From positions 35,912-99,911 of the IMG/VR virus record IMGVR_UViG_3300026311_000012: DNA of 64,000 bases; one strand, given 5' to 3'. Both the position numbers and the translations under genes were made by a program. This stretch comes from a virus. Lineage: Duplodnaviria > Caudoviricetes. This document shows, one piece after another, positions 35,225 through 59,074 of the stretch. The first letter of the stretch is position 1, and each line of letters begins with the position of its first letter. The notes under the pieces are model-generated. The model did not search any database. It worked only from the letters and a program-made list of their open reading frames with translations, and was not told the origin of the DNA.

Positions 35225-37171
35225 CTATACTTTTGCTAAATTGCTTAATCTATACATTAATTCATCAACAGAAGTGATCGCATTATCAATAGGTATTTCT
35301 ACACCTTCTCTATATATTCTGAATGTAGATTGCCCATAACTATCTACATCTTCCTTCCAAGATATCCCTTTTAATCCTTCAGATATTGTATTAGATAATT
35401 CTTCATCTGATTTATTGGCATAATTTGGATCTGATTTTATCATATCTTTTATATATTCGGTATACGTATTTTGAACATCTGTCGGTACTTGTGATGTTTT
35501 ACCTACACTATACTCTACTTCTGGGATCATATGTATATTTGAAAAATAAGCATCTGAAAGTAAAGATGGAGTATTAGTTGCTGCAGCAAGTTGTGCCCAA
35601 GCAGCATATCCTGATACTGCTGGATTCATTGTTACATTCAATACAGCACCTGATTTAACATCTCCTTTAACTAATCTTAAAATTGGAATTTTACCAGGAG
35701 ATTGAAGCATTGCTATAGTGAGATCTCCTTCGGCTTCTTTAAACTTTGTTAAGTCTTTTTCATCTATGATATCAGATTCACCTTCTGGTGTACTAACTGC
35801 ATATTGATTTATAATATTTTTTACAAAATCTACAACTTTTTCTGTATCAGATTTGGGTTGAATTGGAGGTACAAGTATGGCATATTCTCTAGTTAACCCT
35901 TTATTTAACTGTGAAGATATATCTTTTTTAACATTTGAGAAATCTGCATTATACCAAGAATTCATACTTTCTGATATTTTATCAGCCAGTTTCCCAGGAT
36001 TTGATATATTTTTAGACTTTAAATAATCAAATATAAAAGTTCTTGCTGAGACAGACTTTCCTGAAAAACTAAAAAATTCTTTAAGATTTCCTGTCCCCTG
36101 AGTTAAATACAAATCTGTTAAATTATTAAATAGATCATCTTGAACAGATTGAGGCAATCCTTGAGCAGCTTGAGCTAATGTAACTCGTCCTCTATTTATA
36201 ATTTCAATATTTTTTTCATTATTCAAAACATCTTTCTTAACAGCATCGTAATATTGAGATGTTTCATAATCTTGGGTTTTTTCGCCTTGGCGGGTATTCT
36301 TAAGTTTTTCAGGAGTTTTTATTCCATCATCTATAGTTATAGTTCCAATTGGAACCCAGGATTGAGGAACTTTGGTTTCTCTACCTCTACCTGTATCTAT
36401 ATCGGGTAATCTGAGTCTATCTTGTGACATTTTGCCCACTAACCCAGATTGCAATCCGCCAATGGCAACGCTTCTTAAAGTAGGATCATTTAAAAGATCC
36501 TCTGGTATGCCTGCTGTTTTTAATGCTTGAGACACCATATCTTGTCCTTCTTTACCAGAAAGAAAAGCATTCATTTCATTTGGATCAAGAAAACCTAATT
36601 GAGTTTGGTATTCTATTCCATATATTTGATTAGTTCTAGGATCAATTAAATTCTTTTCATAAGTTTTAGGATTAGCATTAGAATATTCTTCAGCAATTGT
36701 TCTGCCTATTGTAAATATATCTTTTGTATCTATAGGTCTATAATTATTAAGGGCTGTTTGATCTTCATATGTAGCTTTTACAGGATCATATACTGAATAA
36801 TACCCTGCTCCTATTCTACGTTTATCTTCTTCTGCAGCTTTAACCAATTCTTTTTTTCTCTCGTTATATGCCCAAAAATCATTTTTTCTAAGTTCACTTA
36901 TTTTTCTAGCCAACTCTTTAGCATATGAAGATGAAGCTCTATCATAATTATATTTCTTTTCTAGATCTGTCATAGTATTAGCAAAGCTTCCGAGTATCTC
37001 ATTTTTTCTTTGAGTATCTTCTGCAGTAATTGTTGGAATCATGGAGTATTGATCCTGAATCTCAAGTTCTCTTGCTAAATTTTGATCATATGCCTGTTGA
37101 TACTCAGAAAGCACTCCTTGGAGCGCTTGAGCATTTGTAGGTATGAATTGAGGAATGTATGATACTGGCAT
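35225..37171 (-). CDS. Putative virion cargo protein
   Basis: Lies between cargo genes and vRNAP; YIPQFIP N-terminus followed by coiled coil. Confidence 0.65.
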   Translation of the reverse strand: MPVSYIPQFIPTNAQALQGVLSEYQQAYDQNLARELEIQDQYSMIPTITAEDTQRKNEILGSFANTMTDLEKKYNYDRASSSYAKELARKISELRKNDFWAYNERKKELVKAAEEDKRRIGAGYYSVYDPVKATYEDQTALNNYRPIDTKDIFTIGRTIAEEYSNANPKTYEKNLIDPRTNQIYGIEYQTQLGFLDPNEMNAFLSGKEGQDMVSQALKTAGIPEDLLNDPTLRSVAIGGLQSGLVGKMSQDRLRLPDIDTGRGRETKVPQSWVPIGTITIDDGIKTPEKLKNTRQGEKTQDYETSQYYDAVKKDVLNNEKNIEIINRGRVTLAQAAQGLPQSVQDDLFNNLTDLYLTQGTGNLKEFFSFSGKSVSARTFIFDYLKSKNISNPGKLADKISESMNSWYNADFSNVKKDISSQLNKGLTREYAILVPPIQPKSDTEKVVDFVKNIINQYAVSTPEGESDIIDEKDLTKFKEAEGDLTIAMLQSPGKIPILRLVKGDVKSGAVLNVTMNPAVSGYAAWAQLAAATNTPSLLSDAYFSNIHMIPEVEYSVGKTSQVPTDVQNTYTEYIKDMIKSDPNYANKSDEELSNTISEGLKGISWKEDVDSYGQSTFRIYREGVEIPIDNAITSVDELMYRLSNLAKV

Positions 37172-44655: not shown

Positions 44656-45212
44656 GTTTTATAATTATGATATGTATTACGTTTTTGTTTAGCAAGATAG
44701 TAATCATTTTGTCTATCTTCCGATTTTATATGAGCTGCTAAATCTAATCTATTTTGTTTTGTAGGTTTAAATCTATATGCCCTTACATTTTTAAACTTAA
44801 TTTTATGTCTTTCCCAGTGCCATTTCATTATATATCCGTTACTATGATCATTAGTTTGATATATTAATGTTTTACCAGGTAATTTTTTTATTTCTTTATT
44901 AGTTAACCCTTTATATTCTTCATTCCAAATTTTCCAACTCGTTCCCCAATCTGGAACCATTTTACTCTTTTGTAGTTTGCCATCCTTTATTCGTATCTTT
45001 AGTTCATTTTTTCTAATCCCTAAATATCCTAATCCATATGGCATTTTAAATTCAAGTGATTCTTTTATAATTTTTTCTGAAATTTTTTTGTTTAATCTGT
45101 GGCATATATCAACATATTCTTTTCTTGTAATTCCTGGGACACCTTTTTTCTTCTTATATTGTTTATAAGCATCCCAAAGCCCCATTGTTATTTTAATTGA
45201 ATGTTTCTTCAT
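44652..45212 (-). CDS. Basic IHF/HU-like protein of the crAss tail block
   Basis: Very basic; FKMPYGLGYLGIRK, YRFKPT; position between ring genes. Confidence 0.6.
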   Translation of the reverse strand: MKKHSIKITMGLWDAYKQYKKKKGVPGITRKEYVDICHRLNKKISEKIIKESLEFKMPYGLGYLGIRKNELKIRIKDGKLQKSKMVPDWGTSWKIWNEEYKGLTNKEIKKLPGKTLIYQTNDHSNGYIMKWHWERHKIKFKNVRAYRFKPTKQNRLDLAAHIKSEDRQNDYYLAKQKRNTYHNYKT

Positions 45213-45874
45213 TCTATTAGCCCACTAGAATCATTTTTTTCATCCGATCTTGTTTCAAGAATATTTCTGATATCCGTTTTAATAATATCATTTTTCATAT
45301 ATTCAATCATATGAAGATTTACTGGATAATCGTCAGTAGTTTCATCAAACGTGGATACTTCTGTAGGATCAGCAAATATAGCAGTAAGAATTAAATACTT
45401 CAAAGGCTTTTCTATTTCAGAGTTAGATTTTACATAAAACCTATTATCATAAAAAGCTGCAAATAACATATGCTTATTTACCACACCATTCCCACACCAA
45501 CGCAATCTATCGAAAGGAACATACTGTATAGTCTTAGAAAGAATATCAGGAAGAGATATTTCATAGACAGCAGGACCAATTCTATACTCTATCATTTTAG
45601 GTACTTCAGCTGTTCTTAAAATGAGGTTACCAAGAGATAGAGCGTCCGTACCAGTTCTCTCTAATGATGAATCATATGCACTTAATGTAAGATATTCTGT
45701 TTGTAGTGTATTAAGCTCTACAAATTGTCTATCATTTAAATGAGTCTTTATAAATGTAGCACGCTTTAACATAATAAAATCCCTCAATAAACGAGGGTCA
45801 ATTCTTTCATCGTTAATCACATGTGCATTTCTGGCTTCTTCTATAAGAAGATCTGCTATATCCTTTAGTAACAT
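45209..45874 (-). CDS. Tail ring/tubular protein
   Basis: Synteny; AIFADPTEV...DYPV...ND. Confidence 0.65.
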   Translation of the reverse strand: MLLKDIADLLIEEARNAHVINDERIDPRLLRDFIMLKRATFIKTHLNDRQFVELNTLQTEYLTLSAYDSSLERTGTDALSLGNLILRTAEVPKMIEYRIGPAVYEISLPDILSKTIQYVPFDRLRWCGNGVVNKHMLFAAFYDNRFYVKSNSEIEKPLKYLILTAIFADPTEVSTFDETTDDYPVNLHMIEYMKNDIIKTDIRNILETRSDEKNDSSGLIE

Positions 45875-45886
45875 CTTTATTTAATT

Positions 45887-46414
45887 TCAACTATTTATCT
45901 GAAAATGAAAACAACGAGAATAATAAAACCCATATCTCGATTTATTTTTATTTTTAATTGCCGAATTTATTGCGGACACACAACAATTATTATCCCTAGC
46001 TGCTTCACTTTGACTACCATAACTTTTAATAAATACTCCATTTTCATCGAACTTATGTACCTCTATACTATGGTTATGATTATATCCAAATTTACCTTTC
46101 CAAGTAGGAGGAGGAGGTGTTAGCCCAGTTTGAATTGCATGTTTCATATTTTGACTCCCAGTACACCATTCTAAATTACTAGCATTATTATTTAACTTAT
46201 TCCCATCTATATGATTTACTTGTAAAAGATCACTATTTGAAACATAATGAAACTTCTTTGCCACAATACGATGTATTGGAAATTGTTTGGACATGCCGTT
46301 TATTCTTAATACTACATGTAGGTAACCATTTGTGCCTAAGCCAGGTTTTAAAAATCTATTAGTCTTATTACTCCAAATTCTACCATCTTTATGTATTATA
46401 TAATCACTATTCAT
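45887..46414 (-). CDS. Free-standing HNH homing endonuclease with NUMOD1-like C-terminus
   Basis: IHRIVA, VNHIDGNKLNNNASNLEWCT..N..H, SQSEAAR. Confidence 0.92.
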   Translation of the reverse strand: MNSDYIIHKDGRIWSNKTNRFLKPGLGTNGYLHVVLRINGMSKQFPIHRIVAKKFHYVSNSDLLQVNHIDGNKLNNNASNLEWCTGSQNMKHAIQTGLTPPPPTWKGKFGYNHNHSIEVHKFDENGVFIKSYGSQSEAARDNNCCVSAINSAIKNKNKSRYGFYYSRCFHFQINS

Positions 46415-46430
46415 AACTATTTAATATTTA

Positions 46431-46841
46431 CTAAACTAGCTGGAAATGGGGTATGTCAAAAAATTTAGTATCATTTATATCACGGTCATTATCCCAATCA
46501 ATCCCTGATATAATATCATGTTTAATAAGACCTTCATCATATAACCTTTTTGCTACACCTTGAGCAAATCCTGCAAAAAATATCATTTGATCTCTACCCC
46601 AATCTAATTTTCCCTCCCATGGAGCTAGATCAACGGCCATAGAAGGATAAGAATTATGCTTGCTATTGGGGAACTTAACTTTGGAATAACCATCAGCATA
46701 AGCCTTATCCTGTTCTTCTTGGCCTCGATGCCCACATACTACAGTAAAATCATAGTACTTTATTAATTCATTACAAAATATAATTAAGTCCTCATGACAT
46801 GTAGATAATCTATCCAATGATGTTTTACTTAGTTTGGGCAT
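46431..46841 (-). CDS. M15-family L-Ala-D-Glu peptidase endolysin
   Basis: GHR...Q, SKH....AVD, DIPHFQL. Confidence 0.9.
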   Translation of the reverse strand: MPKLSKTSLDRLSTCHEDLIIFCNELIKYYDFTVVCGHRGQEEQDKAYADGYSKVKFPNSKHNSYPSMAVDLAPWEGKLDWGRDQMIFFAGFAQGVAKRLYDEGLIKHDIISGIDWDNDRDINDTKFFDIPHFQLV

Positions 46842-46850
46842 ATTAGTAAA

Positions 46851-47015
46851 TTATTCAGGTTTATCTTCTTCTTTTAATTCAACAGATTGTTCATCATATT
46901 GTCTTTTAATCACTTCCATTACTGGGACAGACACCTTAGCAGGGAGTTCCAATAAAGCTTGATAAATTATATTAAGATGAGCTTCTGTTAATTTTAAACT
47001 AAATATCTTATCCAT
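46851..47015 (-). CDS. Small hypothetical protein (start moved to MDKIF)
   Basis: ALLELPAKVS..V...I..Q; the start follows the upstream stop by 2 nt. Confidence 0.7.
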   Translation of the reverse strand: MDKIFSLKLTEAHLNIIYQALLELPAKVSVPVMEVIKRQYDEQSVELKEEDKPE

Positions 47016-47017
47016 AT

Positions 47018-47917
47018 TTAAAATGTTATTTTTACACCAGGTGCAATAAACCAATTCTCTTTAAAAGTCTTGTATTTATTAATATCATAACCTACTCCAA
47101 GATTGAATGTAAAAGAATTAAATAACTGGAGTGCAGATACATCCACCATAAGAGACATAAACTGCTGAGTAATATCTTCTGTTATAGGAAATAGTACATA
47201 TCCACCAAAACCATAGTTATTGAAAACTTCACCTTCGTTATTAATAAAATGAGAAAAAGTTATACCAAAACCAGAGCGTGAAAATGGTTCTGTAACAAAT
47301 TTACCATCAGCTACAGAAAAATTAGTTTTAGCTCCAAGAACAGTAGCTCCAAATCTCATAATTAATGCACCATTGTCATTAACTGAAATTGTGTCAGAGC
47401 CTGCTCTAAGTTGTTTAGCAATCTGCTTAGTCTTAATAGTTTCAACAGTTACAGGTTGAAATAAACTTTTAAAAGCAGGTTGAGCAGATGCTGTCAAAGC
47501 CATGCTAGAAAGCAACACCCCAAGAATAAGCATCTTAGTTGCTTTACCACTCTTCTTTTTAGGTTCTTTAATAGCTTCTTTCTTTTCACTTTCAGGAGCA
47601 ACAGCTTTTAATTGAGCTTCATGCTTCATCCTAACAGCTTTCATCTTAGGAGATTCAGTTGCTTTCTTCTTAGCAAGACTAAAAAGAAAATTAACAACTT
47701 TACGCCAAATAGATCCTTCAGGAATCTTATCACTTTCTCCAATCCATTCGGAAAGAAAATACATAATTACTAAAATTAAAGTCCAAAGATTGGTCTTTAA
47801 AAATTCCATAAACGATTCCCCAAAGTCATAAGTAACTACTGCTGTAGAATCAGTTGTCTGACCGAATGTAAACAGGGCAATTACAAATAACACAAACATT
47901 GCAAAATACTTCTTCAT
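47018..47917 (-). CDS. Membrane protein: signal peptide, holin-like TM, second internal signal, beta-barrel-like C-terminus
   Basis: MKKYFAMFVLFVIALFTFG|Q; WTLILVIMYFLSEWIG; KATKMLILGVLLSSMALTASA|Q; amphipathic strands ending GVKITF. Confidence 0.7.
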   Translation of the reverse strand: MKKYFAMFVLFVIALFTFGQTTDSTAVVTYDFGESFMEFLKTNLWTLILVIMYFLSEWIGESDKIPEGSIWRKVVNFLFSLAKKKATESPKMKAVRMKHEAQLKAVAPESEKKEAIKEPKKKSGKATKMLILGVLLSSMALTASAQPAFKSLFQPVTVETIKTKQIAKQLRAGSDTISVNDNGALIMRFGATVLGAKTNFSVADGKFVTEPFSRSGFGITFSHFINNEGEVFNNYGFGGYVLFPITEDITQQFMSLMVDVSALQLFNSFTFNLGVGYDINKYKTFKENWFIAPGVKITF

Positions 47918-48792
47918 TTTTTTTGTTTTTGATTATTATTATTATTAATAGATTCTCCTTCTACTATATAGAAAGTCCAAAAATCCATACACAAAGTTCT
48001 ATCTAATACAAATTCCCAAGGAACATGACATGTACCACACATTCCCCATCCTGATCCCCAAGAGTTTAATTCTATAGTACCATCTTTATCATAATCAAAT
48101 ATAACCATACAGTGACCTCCATGAAGGGTTTCTTTTTCTTTATTGGGAATAGGAACAATTCCTGACTCAGCCACTTCTTCTGACATGAAACTATCATATA
48201 TAAGTTTACCATATACAACAGGGTATCCTCTAGATACTGCATCTTTTATAGCTTCTTTTGTATGAGGCAACCTTTCATATCTTATAGACTGATGATCGAG
48301 TGCTTCTTTAAAAGCCTCGTCAGAAGGCTTAATTGCAAATTTCTTTATGCAATAAGGAATTGTTTTTTCACTACATAATCCAAATTTATTAATAGCCTTA
48401 AAAGCATCTCTTATAGATGCCCCGGTATCATTGTCTTTATCTTCTCTTGCTATATAATATGCAAATAATCTTGATGCTAAAAAGTCAGACTGATTGTTTG
48501 TTTTAAGAACATATCTGTATGCTTCTACAACACCATGTCCTACACAACTACCTAAAGCTCCTTGATTATATCTTGTTCTAAACTTTTTAATATTTCTTTT
48601 ATTAGTAGATTCAGGTAATCCTTTATATCTTCTAACTCTATATACAATATCTCTAGGATCTTCCTTATCCTTAATAGCTCCTAATGCATATGGAGTTGTT
48701 TTTTTACGCATAAAATACTTCTTAATAAATTTGTACAAAGATACGAAATTTATTTTAATTGTCAAAGCCTTTATTCTATCTTTTATATTCAT
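47914..48792 (-). CDS. Papain-family (C1) cysteine peptidase
   Basis: QGALGSCVGH, GGHCM, NSWG..WG..G. Confidence 0.92.
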   Translation of the reverse strand: MNIKDRIKALTIKINFVSLYKFIKKYFMRKKTTPYALGAIKDKEDPRDIVYRVRRYKGLPESTNKRNIKKFRTRYNQGALGSCVGHGVVEAYRYVLKTNNQSDFLASRLFAYYIAREDKDNDTGASIRDAFKAINKFGLCSEKTIPYCIKKFAIKPSDEAFKEALDHQSIRYERLPHTKEAIKDAVSRGYPVVYGKLIYDSFMSEEVAESGIVPIPNKEKETLHGGHCMVIFDYDKDGTIELNSWGSGWGMCGTCHVPWEFVLDRTLCMDFWTFYIVEGESINNNNNQKQKK

Positions 48793-52453: not shown

Positions 52454-52759
52454 TTATCCTTTTATGAAATTTATAATAAATAATATAACACCAATTATAA
52501 AAGATACTCCAAAACTAATTCCACCAGCTGTCCAATATATCCTATCTATTCTATTATTTATTTTATTACTATCTTCTTCTTGTTTTGATTTTAAACTTTT
52601 TAATTTTAGTTCATTCTCGCATTGTCTTTTTATAAGTCCTGACTCATTATATTGATTTCCAAGCAATGCTGTTTTAATATCGCTGACATCCTTTTGAAGT
52701 TGCTTTAGTATATCATCTGGAACATCACACATTTCATTGATCTCCTTTCTCTCTTCCAT
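52454..52759 (-). CDS. Coiled-coil protein with C-terminal TM (holin-like candidate)
   Basis: IKTALLGN...GL, coiled coil, then WTAGGISFGVSFIIGVILFII. Confidence 0.6.
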   Translation of the reverse strand: MEERKEINEMCDVPDDILKQLQKDVSDIKTALLGNQYNESGLIKRQCENELKLKSLKSKQEEDSNKINNRIDRIYWTAGGISFGVSFIIGVILFIINFIKG

Positions 52760-52760
52760 A

Positions 52761-53357
52761 TCAAAGTTTTATTTTTTTTATATATATTAGTTTGCTTTCA
52801 CATAATTCTTTTAAATCCATAGGGTCATCGTCCCACGGACTTAATGAAAAATCTGGTCTTACTTGGGATATAGCAGTGCTGACAAATTCACTACAAAAAT
52901 AACGTTTTTGAGCTCCAAGCCCTCTATGACCAAGCCATTTTTCTCTTCCTTTAAAAATAATATACAATATTCTATATATTTGATTTATAAAATTACTAAA
53001 TTCATATTTCTTACCAGCTTGCTCTAAAGACCATGCTCTAAGTAATCCAATAAGTGAAGAATTTAATGGAATAGAATATATATAAATAATGCGTTTCTTT
53101 CCATCACCATACATCCCCCTAATAGTTTTAGGAAATACCCCTCTTCTTTCTGCCCCAATTACTAAATCATTACCTACATATATATCAGCATGATTACATA
53201 TTTCTTTAGTAGTCTTACCTAAAGCTATTTGTTTTAATCTCATAAAAAATCTAATAGCCTTGGCTAAAAAACTATAAGATCTAACCATAAATACATATGA
53301 TTTATTATCGTTAGGAAAAGCGGCCAAAACCTCATCAAATTTCTTATGTCGTTTCAT
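52761..53357 (-). CDS. Permuted papain-like NlpC/P60 (YiiX/YebB-like) enzyme
   Basis: NHADIY (His first), GKKYEF, FCSEFV (Cys last), terminal P.DL. Confidence 0.8.
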   Translation of the reverse strand: MKRHKKFDEVLAAFPNDNKSYVFMVRSYSFLAKAIRFFMRLKQIALGKTTKEICNHADIYVGNDLVIGAERRGVFPKTIRGMYGDGKKRIIYIYSIPLNSSLIGLLRAWSLEQAGKKYEFSNFINQIYRILYIIFKGREKWLGHRGLGAQKRYFCSEFVSTAISQVRPDFSLSPWDDDPMDLKELCESKLIYIKKIKL

Positions 53358-58750: not shown

Positions 58751-59074
58751 TTAATTATAGAAGTCTTTCTTCCTCAAAATCCATTCAACAATAATACTTT
58801 CAATAAGTAATATTAACATTGGCCCACTTATAGCTCCAACTATCCCCCAAAAAGCATCATAGAACTGAGGTTCTCCAAACCCCATCCATTTATCAAACAC
58901 TATTTCTTTTGAAAGAGCCACTATAATAGCAATACCTGTAGCAATTCCTGCATCCCAATTATACATTTTAGATGCAACCCACCTAAACGGATTAAATTTA
59001 ATTCTAAATGATAATAATACAGAAAAAGATATTATTAAACATATCAAAAAATGCAAAAATTCGTCTTCTCTCAT
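58751..59074 (-). CDS. Small multi-pass membrane protein
   Basis: Three hydrophobic segments; H...KE..D....D pattern. Confidence 0.7.
   Translation of the reverse strand: MREDEFLHFLICLIISFSVLLSFRIKFNPFRWVASKMYNWDAGIATGIAIIVALSKEIVFDKWMGFGEPQFYDAFWGIVGAISGPMLILLIESIIVEWILRKKDFYN

Follow-up and report, generated by a model that had tools for sequence, protein, structure and literature searches.

Why should a single phage gene encode two signal peptides, one at the start of its product and one halfway? The question is raised by an open reading frame (ORF) for a protein of 299 aa on the minus strand of a crAss-like phage genome (47018..47917). Positions are those of the window, i.e. the whole stretch of 64,000 nucleotides that was analysed, which is the right-hand 64 kb (positions 35,912 to 99,911) of a viral record (IMG/VR record IMGVR_UViG_3300026311_000012) that is complete at 99,911 bp and has direct terminal repeats. 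An earlier note, made from the letters of this DNA, had described in the protein two signal peptides, a sequon, a transmembrane (TM) helix, a lysine-rich stretch and a beta-rich end, and every one of these elements was found to be present. Our analysis leads to a reading to which, when the entire chain of reasoning is taken together, we give about even chances: the gene would encode a precursor of two envelope proteins of a lysis cassette, divided by host signal peptidase I. The anatomy and the logic of the processing are likely to be right, and we consider both a role in lysis and an outer-membrane location of the exported half to be somewhat more probable than the contrary.

Hydropathy analysis located exactly three hydrophobic segments in the 299-aa protein (P0001; residues 1-20, 44-60 and 128-146), and the whole is a single ORF in which the following parts were delimited, all on the minus strand. 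Signal peptide 1 (residues 1-19, MKKYFAMFVLFVIALFTFG; 47861..47917; from hydropathy) consists of MKK, an h-region of 13 residues and TFG, with a predicted cut before Q20. It is followed by a short exported, i.e. periplasmic, segment (residues 20-43, QTTDSTAVVTYDFGESFMEFLKTN; 47789..47860), which was recognised as an invariant alignment block and is the best-conserved stretch of the N-terminal module (N module). The segment carries D23-S24-T25 (47843-47851), a sequon of the form D-[ST]-[AILVMT], which we take to be the O-glycosylation motif of the Bacteroidota; D23 is kept in 49 of 53 sequences. In the modules of the same type (type A, see below) Q20 is kept in 36 of 40, the residue at -1 is Ala, Gly or Ser in 47 of the 51 that have a residue there, the uncharged stretch of signal 1 has a median length of 16 residues, and in most of them the sequon follows signal 1, which fits the periplasmic placement of residues 20-43. 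The TM helix (residues 44-61, containing LSEWIG; 47735..47788; hydropathy, model pLDDT about 83) then runs from out to in and leads to a cytoplasmic part (residues 62-127; 47537..47734; 18 Lys and Arg versus 8 Asp and Glu) that comprises an amphipathic helix (residues 70-87) and a Lys-rich linker. This linker is poorly conserved, varies in length between 27 and 74 aa among the homologues and is always net basic; the model of the full-length protein has low pLDDT at residues 107-124.

The second half of the chain opens with the internal signal peptide 2 (residues 128-145, KMLILGVLLSSMALTASA; 47483..47536), which ends in TASA and has a predicted signal peptidase I cut before Q146. The N-terminal segment of the predicted exported product (residues 146-183; 47369..47482) holds the motif F-x-x-[LF]-F-x-P-V, which reads F-K/R-G-F-F-K-P-V in most members (P155 is kept in 65 of 73), and a helix (residues 158-172); candidate roles of this segment in the mature barrel are those of a plug, a chaperone or a contact to a partner. 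A second sequon, D-T-I at residues 175-177, is present in the subfamily of P0001. The remainder (residues 184-299; 47021..47368) forms a beta-barrel domain of six long antiparallel strands in an AlphaFold2 model and ends in a beta-signal-like GxxΦxF within the last eight residues APGVKITF (47021-47044). A lipoprotein was considered and ruled out, as Cys is absent.

An exhaustive HMMER search over 1.84 billion cluster representatives recovered 80 relatives, themselves cluster representatives, of which 78 could be aligned: 55 are fused like P0001, 18 consist of the barrel only and 5 of the N module only. The stand-alone barrel halves measure 145-190 aa and each has its own classical signal peptide (MKK..., ...SAQ); the stand-alone N halves measure 84-109 aa. 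The layout is more than chance, because it is kept in 55 representatives, down to about 25% identity, and an assembly or frameshift artefact could likewise be ruled out, since the fused frame recurs in 55 clusters. The members are named 'hypothetical protein' or not at all. Neither the 299-aa protein nor any of the 78 aligned members had a meaningful match in Pfam or PHROGs, three family members searched by tblastn against 50,697 GenBank phage records gave no match, the family profile matched none of the PDB sequences and P0001 alone as a query matched no viral contig. A degenerate DNA pattern for FKGFFKPV hit five loci, two of which contained the family. The papers that were searched on crAss lysis, on spanins and disruptin and on barrels in lysis cassettes describe neither this family nor a precursor of a holin-like protein and an outer-membrane barrel.

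The internal signal looks like a genuine cleavage site of signal peptidase I, to judge from its sequence. The residue at +1 is Gln in all 73 sequences that could be compared (Q146 in P0001), the residue at -1 is small in all 73 (63 Ala, 7 Ser and 3 Gly) and the residue at -3 is mostly Ala, Val, Leu, Thr or Ser. In P0001 the order is KKKSGKATK, an h-region of 12 residues and TASA|Q, which has the sequence features of a signal peptidase I site of the Q-rule type. According to the Q-rule, the substrates of signal peptidase I in Bacteroidota expose a Gln at +1, which is cyclised to pyroglutamate (PMC5837995, PMC10653852). In the alignment signal 2 coincides with the signal peptides with which the stand-alone barrel proteins begin, and its uncharged h- and c-regions together have a median length of 17 residues in the fused proteins and of 16 in the stand-alone ones, a shortness that by its appearance in the alignment is signal-peptide-like and not anchor-like. 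The earlier note had named an internal start at the Met of KML as the competing origin of the barrel half. That residue, Met129, is shared by just 9 of 70 sequences, so that selection for an internal ATG start is not apparent, as opposed to the signal peptidase site with its 73 out of 73; in relatives at 59-69% identity the position is taken by Ala (P0004, P0005) or Leu (P0008, P0010), and 29 of the 55 fused proteins have no Met within the 14 residues before the h-region. A conserved nested start thus appears unlikely.

The earlier note had reckoned with homologues in which the halves are separate genes, and these exist, as neighbours on the DNA. At the split loci the gene for a protein with two TM helices (2-TM) lies directly upstream of the barrel gene and overlaps it by 4-13 nt in L001, L006 and L008 (in L001 a 79-aa 2-TM gene overlaps by ATGA), is separated from it by a short gap in L005, L018 and L021 and lies on its other side in L010; L004 has no adjacent 2-TM gene. 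As the overlapping genes are in different frames, recoding of a stop codon could be ruled out as the origin of the split forms. The N modules of the fused proteins belong to at least four families without BLAST similarity to each other, i.e. at least four unrelated small membrane modules have been joined to the same barrel, and three of these also occur as separate genes directly upstream of a barrel gene. Type A, the type of P0001, with signal peptide, sequon and TM helix, has 50 members; type B has 7 fused members and includes the stand-alone 79-aa 2-TM protein of L001 (41-57% identity to the fused N parts); type C has 2 fused members; and type D has a single fused member and a stand-alone counterpart, a 77-aa protein encoded upstream of the barrel gene in L005. 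Their topology is C-in throughout and the linker, 27-74 residues long, is basic, so that the n-region of signal 2 comes to lie on the cytoplasmic side.

A maximum-likelihood tree built on the barrel part mixes fused with split members: it requires no fewer than 13 changes between the two states, 7 or more of them imposed by branches with good support, and one sister pair consists of a fused (P0062) and a split (P0041) member with 97% support. The two arrangements look interchangeable, as cleavage of the fused chain into these very two products would lead one to expect, and the repeated fusion and fission is strong comparative evidence that both parts work together. The N module of P0001 has the size and position of a holin (127 residues, two hydrophobic helices, a tail with 18 Lys and Arg, encoded between the peptidase and M15 endolysin genes described below), and it has no match to a holin family in Pfam or PHROGs. 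Holins are many unrelated families of small membrane proteins with one job, and the variety of the N modules is therefore itself holin-like. The holin-like character that the earlier note had given to the N part also fits, with several unrelated small 2-TM modules filling that position.

The barrel part was modelled with AlphaFold2 as a monomer on the basis of 54 aligned sequences. The model (pLDDT 90.8, pTM 0.80) consists of the N-terminal segment with F-x-x-F-F-x-P-V, a helix and six long antiparallel strands, and the model of the full-length protein agrees with it. The proposal that the C-terminal part folds as a membrane-type barrel was borne out in so far as the prediction yields a confident closed barrel with a beta-signal of the outer-membrane type. 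Every strand has a dyad pattern in the alignment columns: one face is to 80-100% made up of large hydrophobic residues (Leu, Ile, Val, Phe, Tyr, Trp) with 0% charge, and the opposite face of Gly, Ser, Thr, Asn and Ala with very little charge, the most conserved columns being G216, G218, G274 and G294. Such a pattern is in keeping with a barrel that is exposed to lipid and tightly packed inside; a soluble barrel would be expected to carry a charged outer face. The C-terminal motif is G294-x-x-[YILVW]-x-F299, where G294 is kept in 59 of 72, position 297 is Tyr, Ile, Leu, Val or Trp in 93% and F299 is kept in 67 of 72, the rest having Leu; it matches the GxxΦxF part of the beta-signal consensus ζxGxx[Ω/Φ]x[Ω/Φ] (PMC10945584). 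Moreover, a Sec-type signal peptide precedes the barrel, as in outer-membrane proteins (OMPs). A structural search with VIA gave as best match the closed six-stranded barrel 9xzt (Z 9.2, rmsd 2.4 Å over 84 residues), followed at Z about 5-6 by de novo transmembrane barrels and by the 8-stranded OprF-N, PagL, CarO, OprH, OmpW and NspA. Of the ESM Atlas clusters closest to it, the unnamed are viral, and among the named PagL and PagP/OMP_b-brl come nearest; all named structural neighbours there are outer-membrane barrel families, mostly from Bacteroidota, which at TM 0.4-0.52 to OMP_b-brl serve as leads only. BFVD returned one significant uncharacterised phage protein and weak matches to phage 'OMP beta-barrel' proteins.

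The genetic context connects the module to lysis. The phage was recognised as crAss-like by a giant ORF of 4,506 aa and by a CrAss_Ring_2 (Pfam) protein at 45209-45874, and the ring/muzzle synteny of the window is also present in one related contig; the genome is of the virulent type and the locus lies in its late structural/lysis operon. Directly upstream lies the gene for a papain-family (C1) cysteine peptidase of 292 aa without signal peptide (47914..48792, minus strand; Pfam PF00112, E 2e-8), whose stop overlaps the start of the 299-aa ORF as ATGA, so that the two are translationally coupled. Two ORFs downstream, where the earlier note had placed an endolysin, we found an M15-type endolysin of 136 aa, also without signal peptide (46431..46841, minus strand; phrog_465 endolysin, E 4e-25), the tblastn matches of which among the GenBank phages are annotated as endolysin or L-alanyl-D-glutamate peptidase. 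The ORF in between (46851-47054, minus strand), listed as a small acidic protein of 67 aa, overlaps the 3' end of the 299-aa ORF by 37 nt; its probable start is the ATG at 47015, three bases past the stop of the 299-aa ORF, which gives an acidic protein of 54 aa, and this form has neither a TM helix nor a family match.

A survey of 13 distinct contexts showed that a cysteine peptidase of the C1 or C14 type adjoins the module in 10 of them and that a peptidoglycan (PG) hydrolase (M15 or Tlde1-domain) or DUF5675 is encoded within three genes in 9. The module directly follows a C1 peptidase gene in the window, L002/L003, L010, L016 and L017, and a gene for a C14 caspase-like peptidase in L005, L008, L013 and the contig of P0053; L001 and L014 probably belong to the second group. 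M15 endolysins homologous to that of the window are encoded near the barrel gene in L004, L005 and L008; a Tlde1-domain protein has the equivalent position in L010 (L010:1251-1610). In four cassettes without M15 the position is occupied by DUF5675 (L001:1362-1628, L006:5284-5721, L013:2598-3017 and L014:5883-6383, the last being the L014/15 context), which suggests, by position, that DUF5675 is the wall-degrading enzyme of the M15-less phages. The C1 peptidase may be a second wall-degrading enzyme, because a distant homologue in Alicyclobacillus phage MMB025 is annotated as endolysin. Candidate substrates of the peptidase, which looks cytoplasmic, are the stem peptide of peptidoglycan, envelope tethers and the linker of the precursor. 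The huge uncultured phage LR756511 encodes a homologous C1 peptidase and has no module beside that gene.

From these observations we derive the following course of events, in which the later steps are the more conditional. Signal peptide 1 would carry the N-terminus over the inner membrane and be removed before Q20, after which a segment of 23 residues, probably O-glycosylated, would remain in the periplasm. Helix 44-61 would anchor the chain, with the Lys-rich linker staying in the cytoplasm, until signal peptide 2 restarts export and host signal peptidase I cuts after A145. Two products would result, equal to those of the two-gene version of the related phages: (a) an inner-membrane protein of the holin type with about 125 residues, and (b) an exported protein of 154 residues with Gln, or pyroglutamate, as its first residue. 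The latter is predicted to be a very small barrel, hydrophobic on the outside and provided with a C-terminal beta-signal, and its most likely destination is the outer membrane, with BAM as the inserting machinery. For the inner-membrane part the most likely role is that of a holin, of a pinholin or of the barrel's partner in the membrane, and the most likely role of the barrel is to open or weaken the outer membrane in the last step of lysis, the job done elsewhere by spanins or disruptin. The earlier note's proposal of a precursor split into a holin-like piece and a BAM-inserted barrel is thus supported in its anatomy, by the split homologues, the predicted barrel and the conserved site, and stays conditional for the cleavage, the insertion by BAM and the role in lysis.

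Several observations count against parts of this interpretation, and they are best considered together with the alternatives to which they lend weight. If the chain were not cut, signal 2 would be a third anchor and the product an inner-membrane protein with three TM helices (3-TM; 2-TM once signal 1 is removed) that displays a soluble barrel in the periplasm, where the domain might regulate the holin, as the T4 antiholin RI does with holin T, or attach to peptidoglycan or to components of the outer membrane. The protein that matches best in structure, 9xzt, was designed de novo and is soluble, and its authors describe the fold as rare in nature (PMC12478100). A Foldseek search of PDB with the full-length or the barrel model returned nothing significant, the curated OMP families of Pfam and the PDB sequences gave no sequence match for the barrel, and the beta-signal has a non-polar residue at the ζ position in most members. 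The strand count in the monomer prediction is six, versus at least eight for outer-membrane barrels, and we know of no natural outer-membrane barrel with fewer than eight. The statistics of the strand faces are those of alignment columns, and the hydrophobic face is the presumed outer one. An uncleaved chain is nevertheless rather unlikely in our opinion, as signal 2 has a median of only 17 uncharged residues with the invariably small -1 and the Gln at +1 that mark the N-terminal signals of the stand-alone genes, the second face of the strands (Gly, Ser, Thr, Asn and almost no charge) would be unusual for a soluble surface, the terminal GxxΦxF is conserved and the neighbours in the ESM Atlas are OMP families. 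Alternatively, ribosomes might also start at Met129 and produce the barrel independently, the full-length chain being a by-product or a minor form. Codon 129 of P0001 is an ATG after an A-rich stretch of Lys codons, which makes additional internal initiation possible in this phage. Initiation in Bacteroidota does not need a Shine-Dalgarno site, and the split homologues show that the barrel works when made alone. The poor conservation of Met129 and the lack of any Met close before the h-region in about half of the fused proteins argue against nested products as the rule, as does the fused frame itself, which has arisen repeatedly and is found in 55 representatives, implying that the single chain is functional; we therefore see little chance for this explanation in its exclusive form, and as an additional route a nested start would be compatible with a precursor that is cleaved.

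Other alternatives concern the function. The pair might serve superinfection exclusion or remodelling of the host surface, in the manner of T4 Imm/Sp or lambda Lom, and block other phages; the earlier note had left the choice between lysis and superinfection exclusion open. T4 imm and sp have the same layout of a small 2-TM protein and an exported protein, small outer-membrane barrels encoded by phages, such as Lom, exist, and in two contexts from large phages (L018-20 and L021-22) the 2-TM and barrel pair has unrelated small genes for neighbours and no lysis enzyme could be recognised in the vicinity, which also tells against a general role in lysis. Exclusion genes are usually expressed early or during lysogeny, and the gene in the window is coupled to a peptidase gene within a late operon of a virulent-type genome; moreover, the hydrolase or DUF5675 within three genes in 9 of the 13 contexts and the cysteine peptidase next to the module in 10 favour the lysis half of that earlier choice and make exclusion unlikely. 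It is highly improbable that the barrel inhibits the adjacent cysteine peptidase in the manner of a cystatin, or is its partner, and keeps the enzyme in check in the periplasm until lysis. In its favour are the C1 or C14 gene that adjoins the module in most contexts and several cystatins among the weak structural matches, at Z 4-5; this is, however, the stated background level of the tool, and the matches cover the beta meander only. Furthermore, an export signal is present on the barrel and absent from the peptidases, one and the same barrel family occurs beside two unrelated peptidase clans, and a hydrophobic exterior with a beta-signal is unfit for a soluble inhibitor. Finally, even if the module acts in lysis its N part need not be the holin, as the window holds other holin candidates (52454-52759 and 58751-59074, both described below).

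A precursor divided into two envelope proteins of a lysis cassette, the reading that we favour, invites comparison with known systems, the closest in presumed task being the spanins (lambda Rz/Rz1, T1 gp11). Like these, the module is a non-holin, non-endolysin envelope component of lysis cassettes in phages of diderm hosts, it has one part in the inner membrane and one that is, by prediction, exported to the outer membrane, it is encoded by separate or overlapping genes or by a single chain, and its presumed task is the opening of the outer membrane. Unlike in spanins, the outer part is a barrel with a signal peptidase I site, and no lipobox Cys is present at or near either cleavage site. The N module also differs from an i-spanin, in that its 23 periplasmic residues have no coiled coil and cannot span the periplasm and its helical charged part is cytoplasmic by the positive-inside rule, and from the unimolecular spanin T1 gp11, with its N-terminal lipoprotein signal and C-terminal TM helix, by the opposite order of its parts and the absence of a lipobox. 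No similarity to spanins was found at the level of sequence or profile (Pfam, PHROGs). The module is therefore not a spanin by membership, and may work in the place of one.

With class II holins such as pinholin S21 68 the N module shares its small size, two hydrophobic helices, an N-in/C-in topology before processing, a basic cytoplasmic tail, the position beside endolysin genes and the occurrence of many unrelated families in that same position. The first helix of S21 68 moves out of the membrane, and that of the N module would be removed by signal peptidase; the module differs from these holins in that this helix is a cleavable-looking signal followed by a glycosylation sequon and in its covalent connection to an exported protein. 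The barrel resembles small outer-membrane barrels (Lom and the Ail/OmpX family, OmpX, PagP, PagL, OmpW, NspA), its nearest named neighbours in structure or features, in its signal peptide, a mature length of about 135-155 aa, the antiparallel meander, the hydrophobic outside and the terminal Phe, and differs by having six strands instead of eight and no family-level sequence match; in contrast to the Lom-type barrels its gene is no moron, as it lies in a lysis cassette and is linked to a 2-TM protein. A precedent for disrupting the outer membrane without spanin is disruptin (phiKT gp28) of a 'spaninless' phage (bioRxiv 10.1101/515445), which, unlike the module, is a small cationic amphipathic peptide without signal peptide or barrel. 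The processing itself has parallels in polyproteins with an internal signal, in which one chain carries a signal peptide after a cytoplasmic loop and signal peptidase frees the exported protein downstream. Bradyrhizobium fbcH (cytochrome b/c1) is such a precursor, cut at an internal signal peptide, and to our knowledge there is no bacterial or phage example of this kind in lysis. The glycoprotein precursors of flaviviruses and bunyaviruses are cut in the same way (PMC5113920), the proteins and the biology being different.

The module is not the only candidate for a lysis component in this genome. The statement of the earlier note that no spanin is recognisable holds for the surroundings of the endolysin gene, where no pair of lipobox and coiled-coil proteins was found, and has to be qualified for the remainder, as other small membrane proteins are encoded in window and genome. 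A protein of 101 aa (52454-52759, minus strand) has an N-terminal coiled coil, a single C-terminal TM helix and a weak match to phrog_689 'holin' (E 0.006); proteins of the same build (100-156 aa) are encoded beside the endolysin or DUF5675 gene in L001, L002, L004, L005, L006, L008, L013 and L014, and the protein may be a further conserved member of the lysis cassette or the actual holin. The gene directly upstream of it (52761-53357, minus strand) encodes a protein of 198 aa with weak matches to Peptidase_C92 (permuted papain-like amidases, E 0.04) and phrog_1128, on the basis of which it is possibly another lysis-linked hydrolase. A class-I-holin-like candidate of 107 aa (58751-59074, minus strand), located about 11 kb from the endolysin, has three TM helices, a short basic tail and no family match; the cassettes of L005, L008 and L010 begin with a gene for a 3-TM protein (110-130 aa). 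The coiled-coil/TM protein, the 3-TM protein and ring protein 2 of the window had no match among the GenBank phages. Outside the window (G000:C1:22571-23103, plus strand) a predicted lipoprotein of 78 aa (MKKLLFILAIACIFSC...) is encoded with a 10-nt overlap to a protein of 101 aa with an N-terminal TM helix; this pair, in the early arm among tiny membrane proteins, could be spanin-like or an exclusion pair. In the related crAss-like contig L002, a protein of 144 aa encoded just upstream of the C1 peptidase gene (L002:880-1314), with a signal peptide (…CTA|Q) and the C-terminus IKLVF, is possibly a second small exported beta protein, and gave no match to the barrel HMM. Between the endolysin and ring protein 2 the window contains an HNH homing-endonuclease gene (45887-46414, minus strand; PF13392, phrog_59), in the place of which L002 has other small genes.

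Taken over all contexts, the recurring set of neighbours consists of a cysteine peptidase, the 2-TM module, the barrel and a PG hydrolase or DUF5675, to which several loci add the coiled-coil TM and 3-TM proteins. A phage lysis cassette is a known kind of system, and that this one employs a new mechanism of outer-membrane disruption is a thought that we put forward with reserve. In that more specific and tentative version, the exported product would represent a new class of disruptors of the outer membrane in phages and be the smallest natural outer-membrane barrel, with six strands, delivered by BAM; it would perforate or destabilise the outer membrane, or jam BAM by means of its beta-signal, and its holin-type partner would be made in a fixed 1:1 amount, as both derive from one precursor processed by signal peptidase. 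If so, it would be the missing 'spanin' of many phages of Bacteroidota, the crAss-like phages included.

About 15% of the phages of diderm hosts are without recognisable spanins (bioRxiv 10.1101/515445). For the opening of the outer membrane by phages of Bacteroidota, among them the crAss-like phages that are very abundant in gut and environment, the family described here is a concrete candidate: it is phage-specific, unannotated, located in lysis cassettes and tied by repeated fusion and fission to small inner-membrane proteins. It is probably an undescribed two-part component of the machinery with which these phages burst the cell. The analysis offers an annotation for a gene that is now 'hypothetical' in many metagenomic phages and, if the reading is true, the gene would represent a polyprotein of a bacterial virus that is divided by the signal peptidase of its host, and its barrel may be smaller than all outer-membrane proteins known so far.

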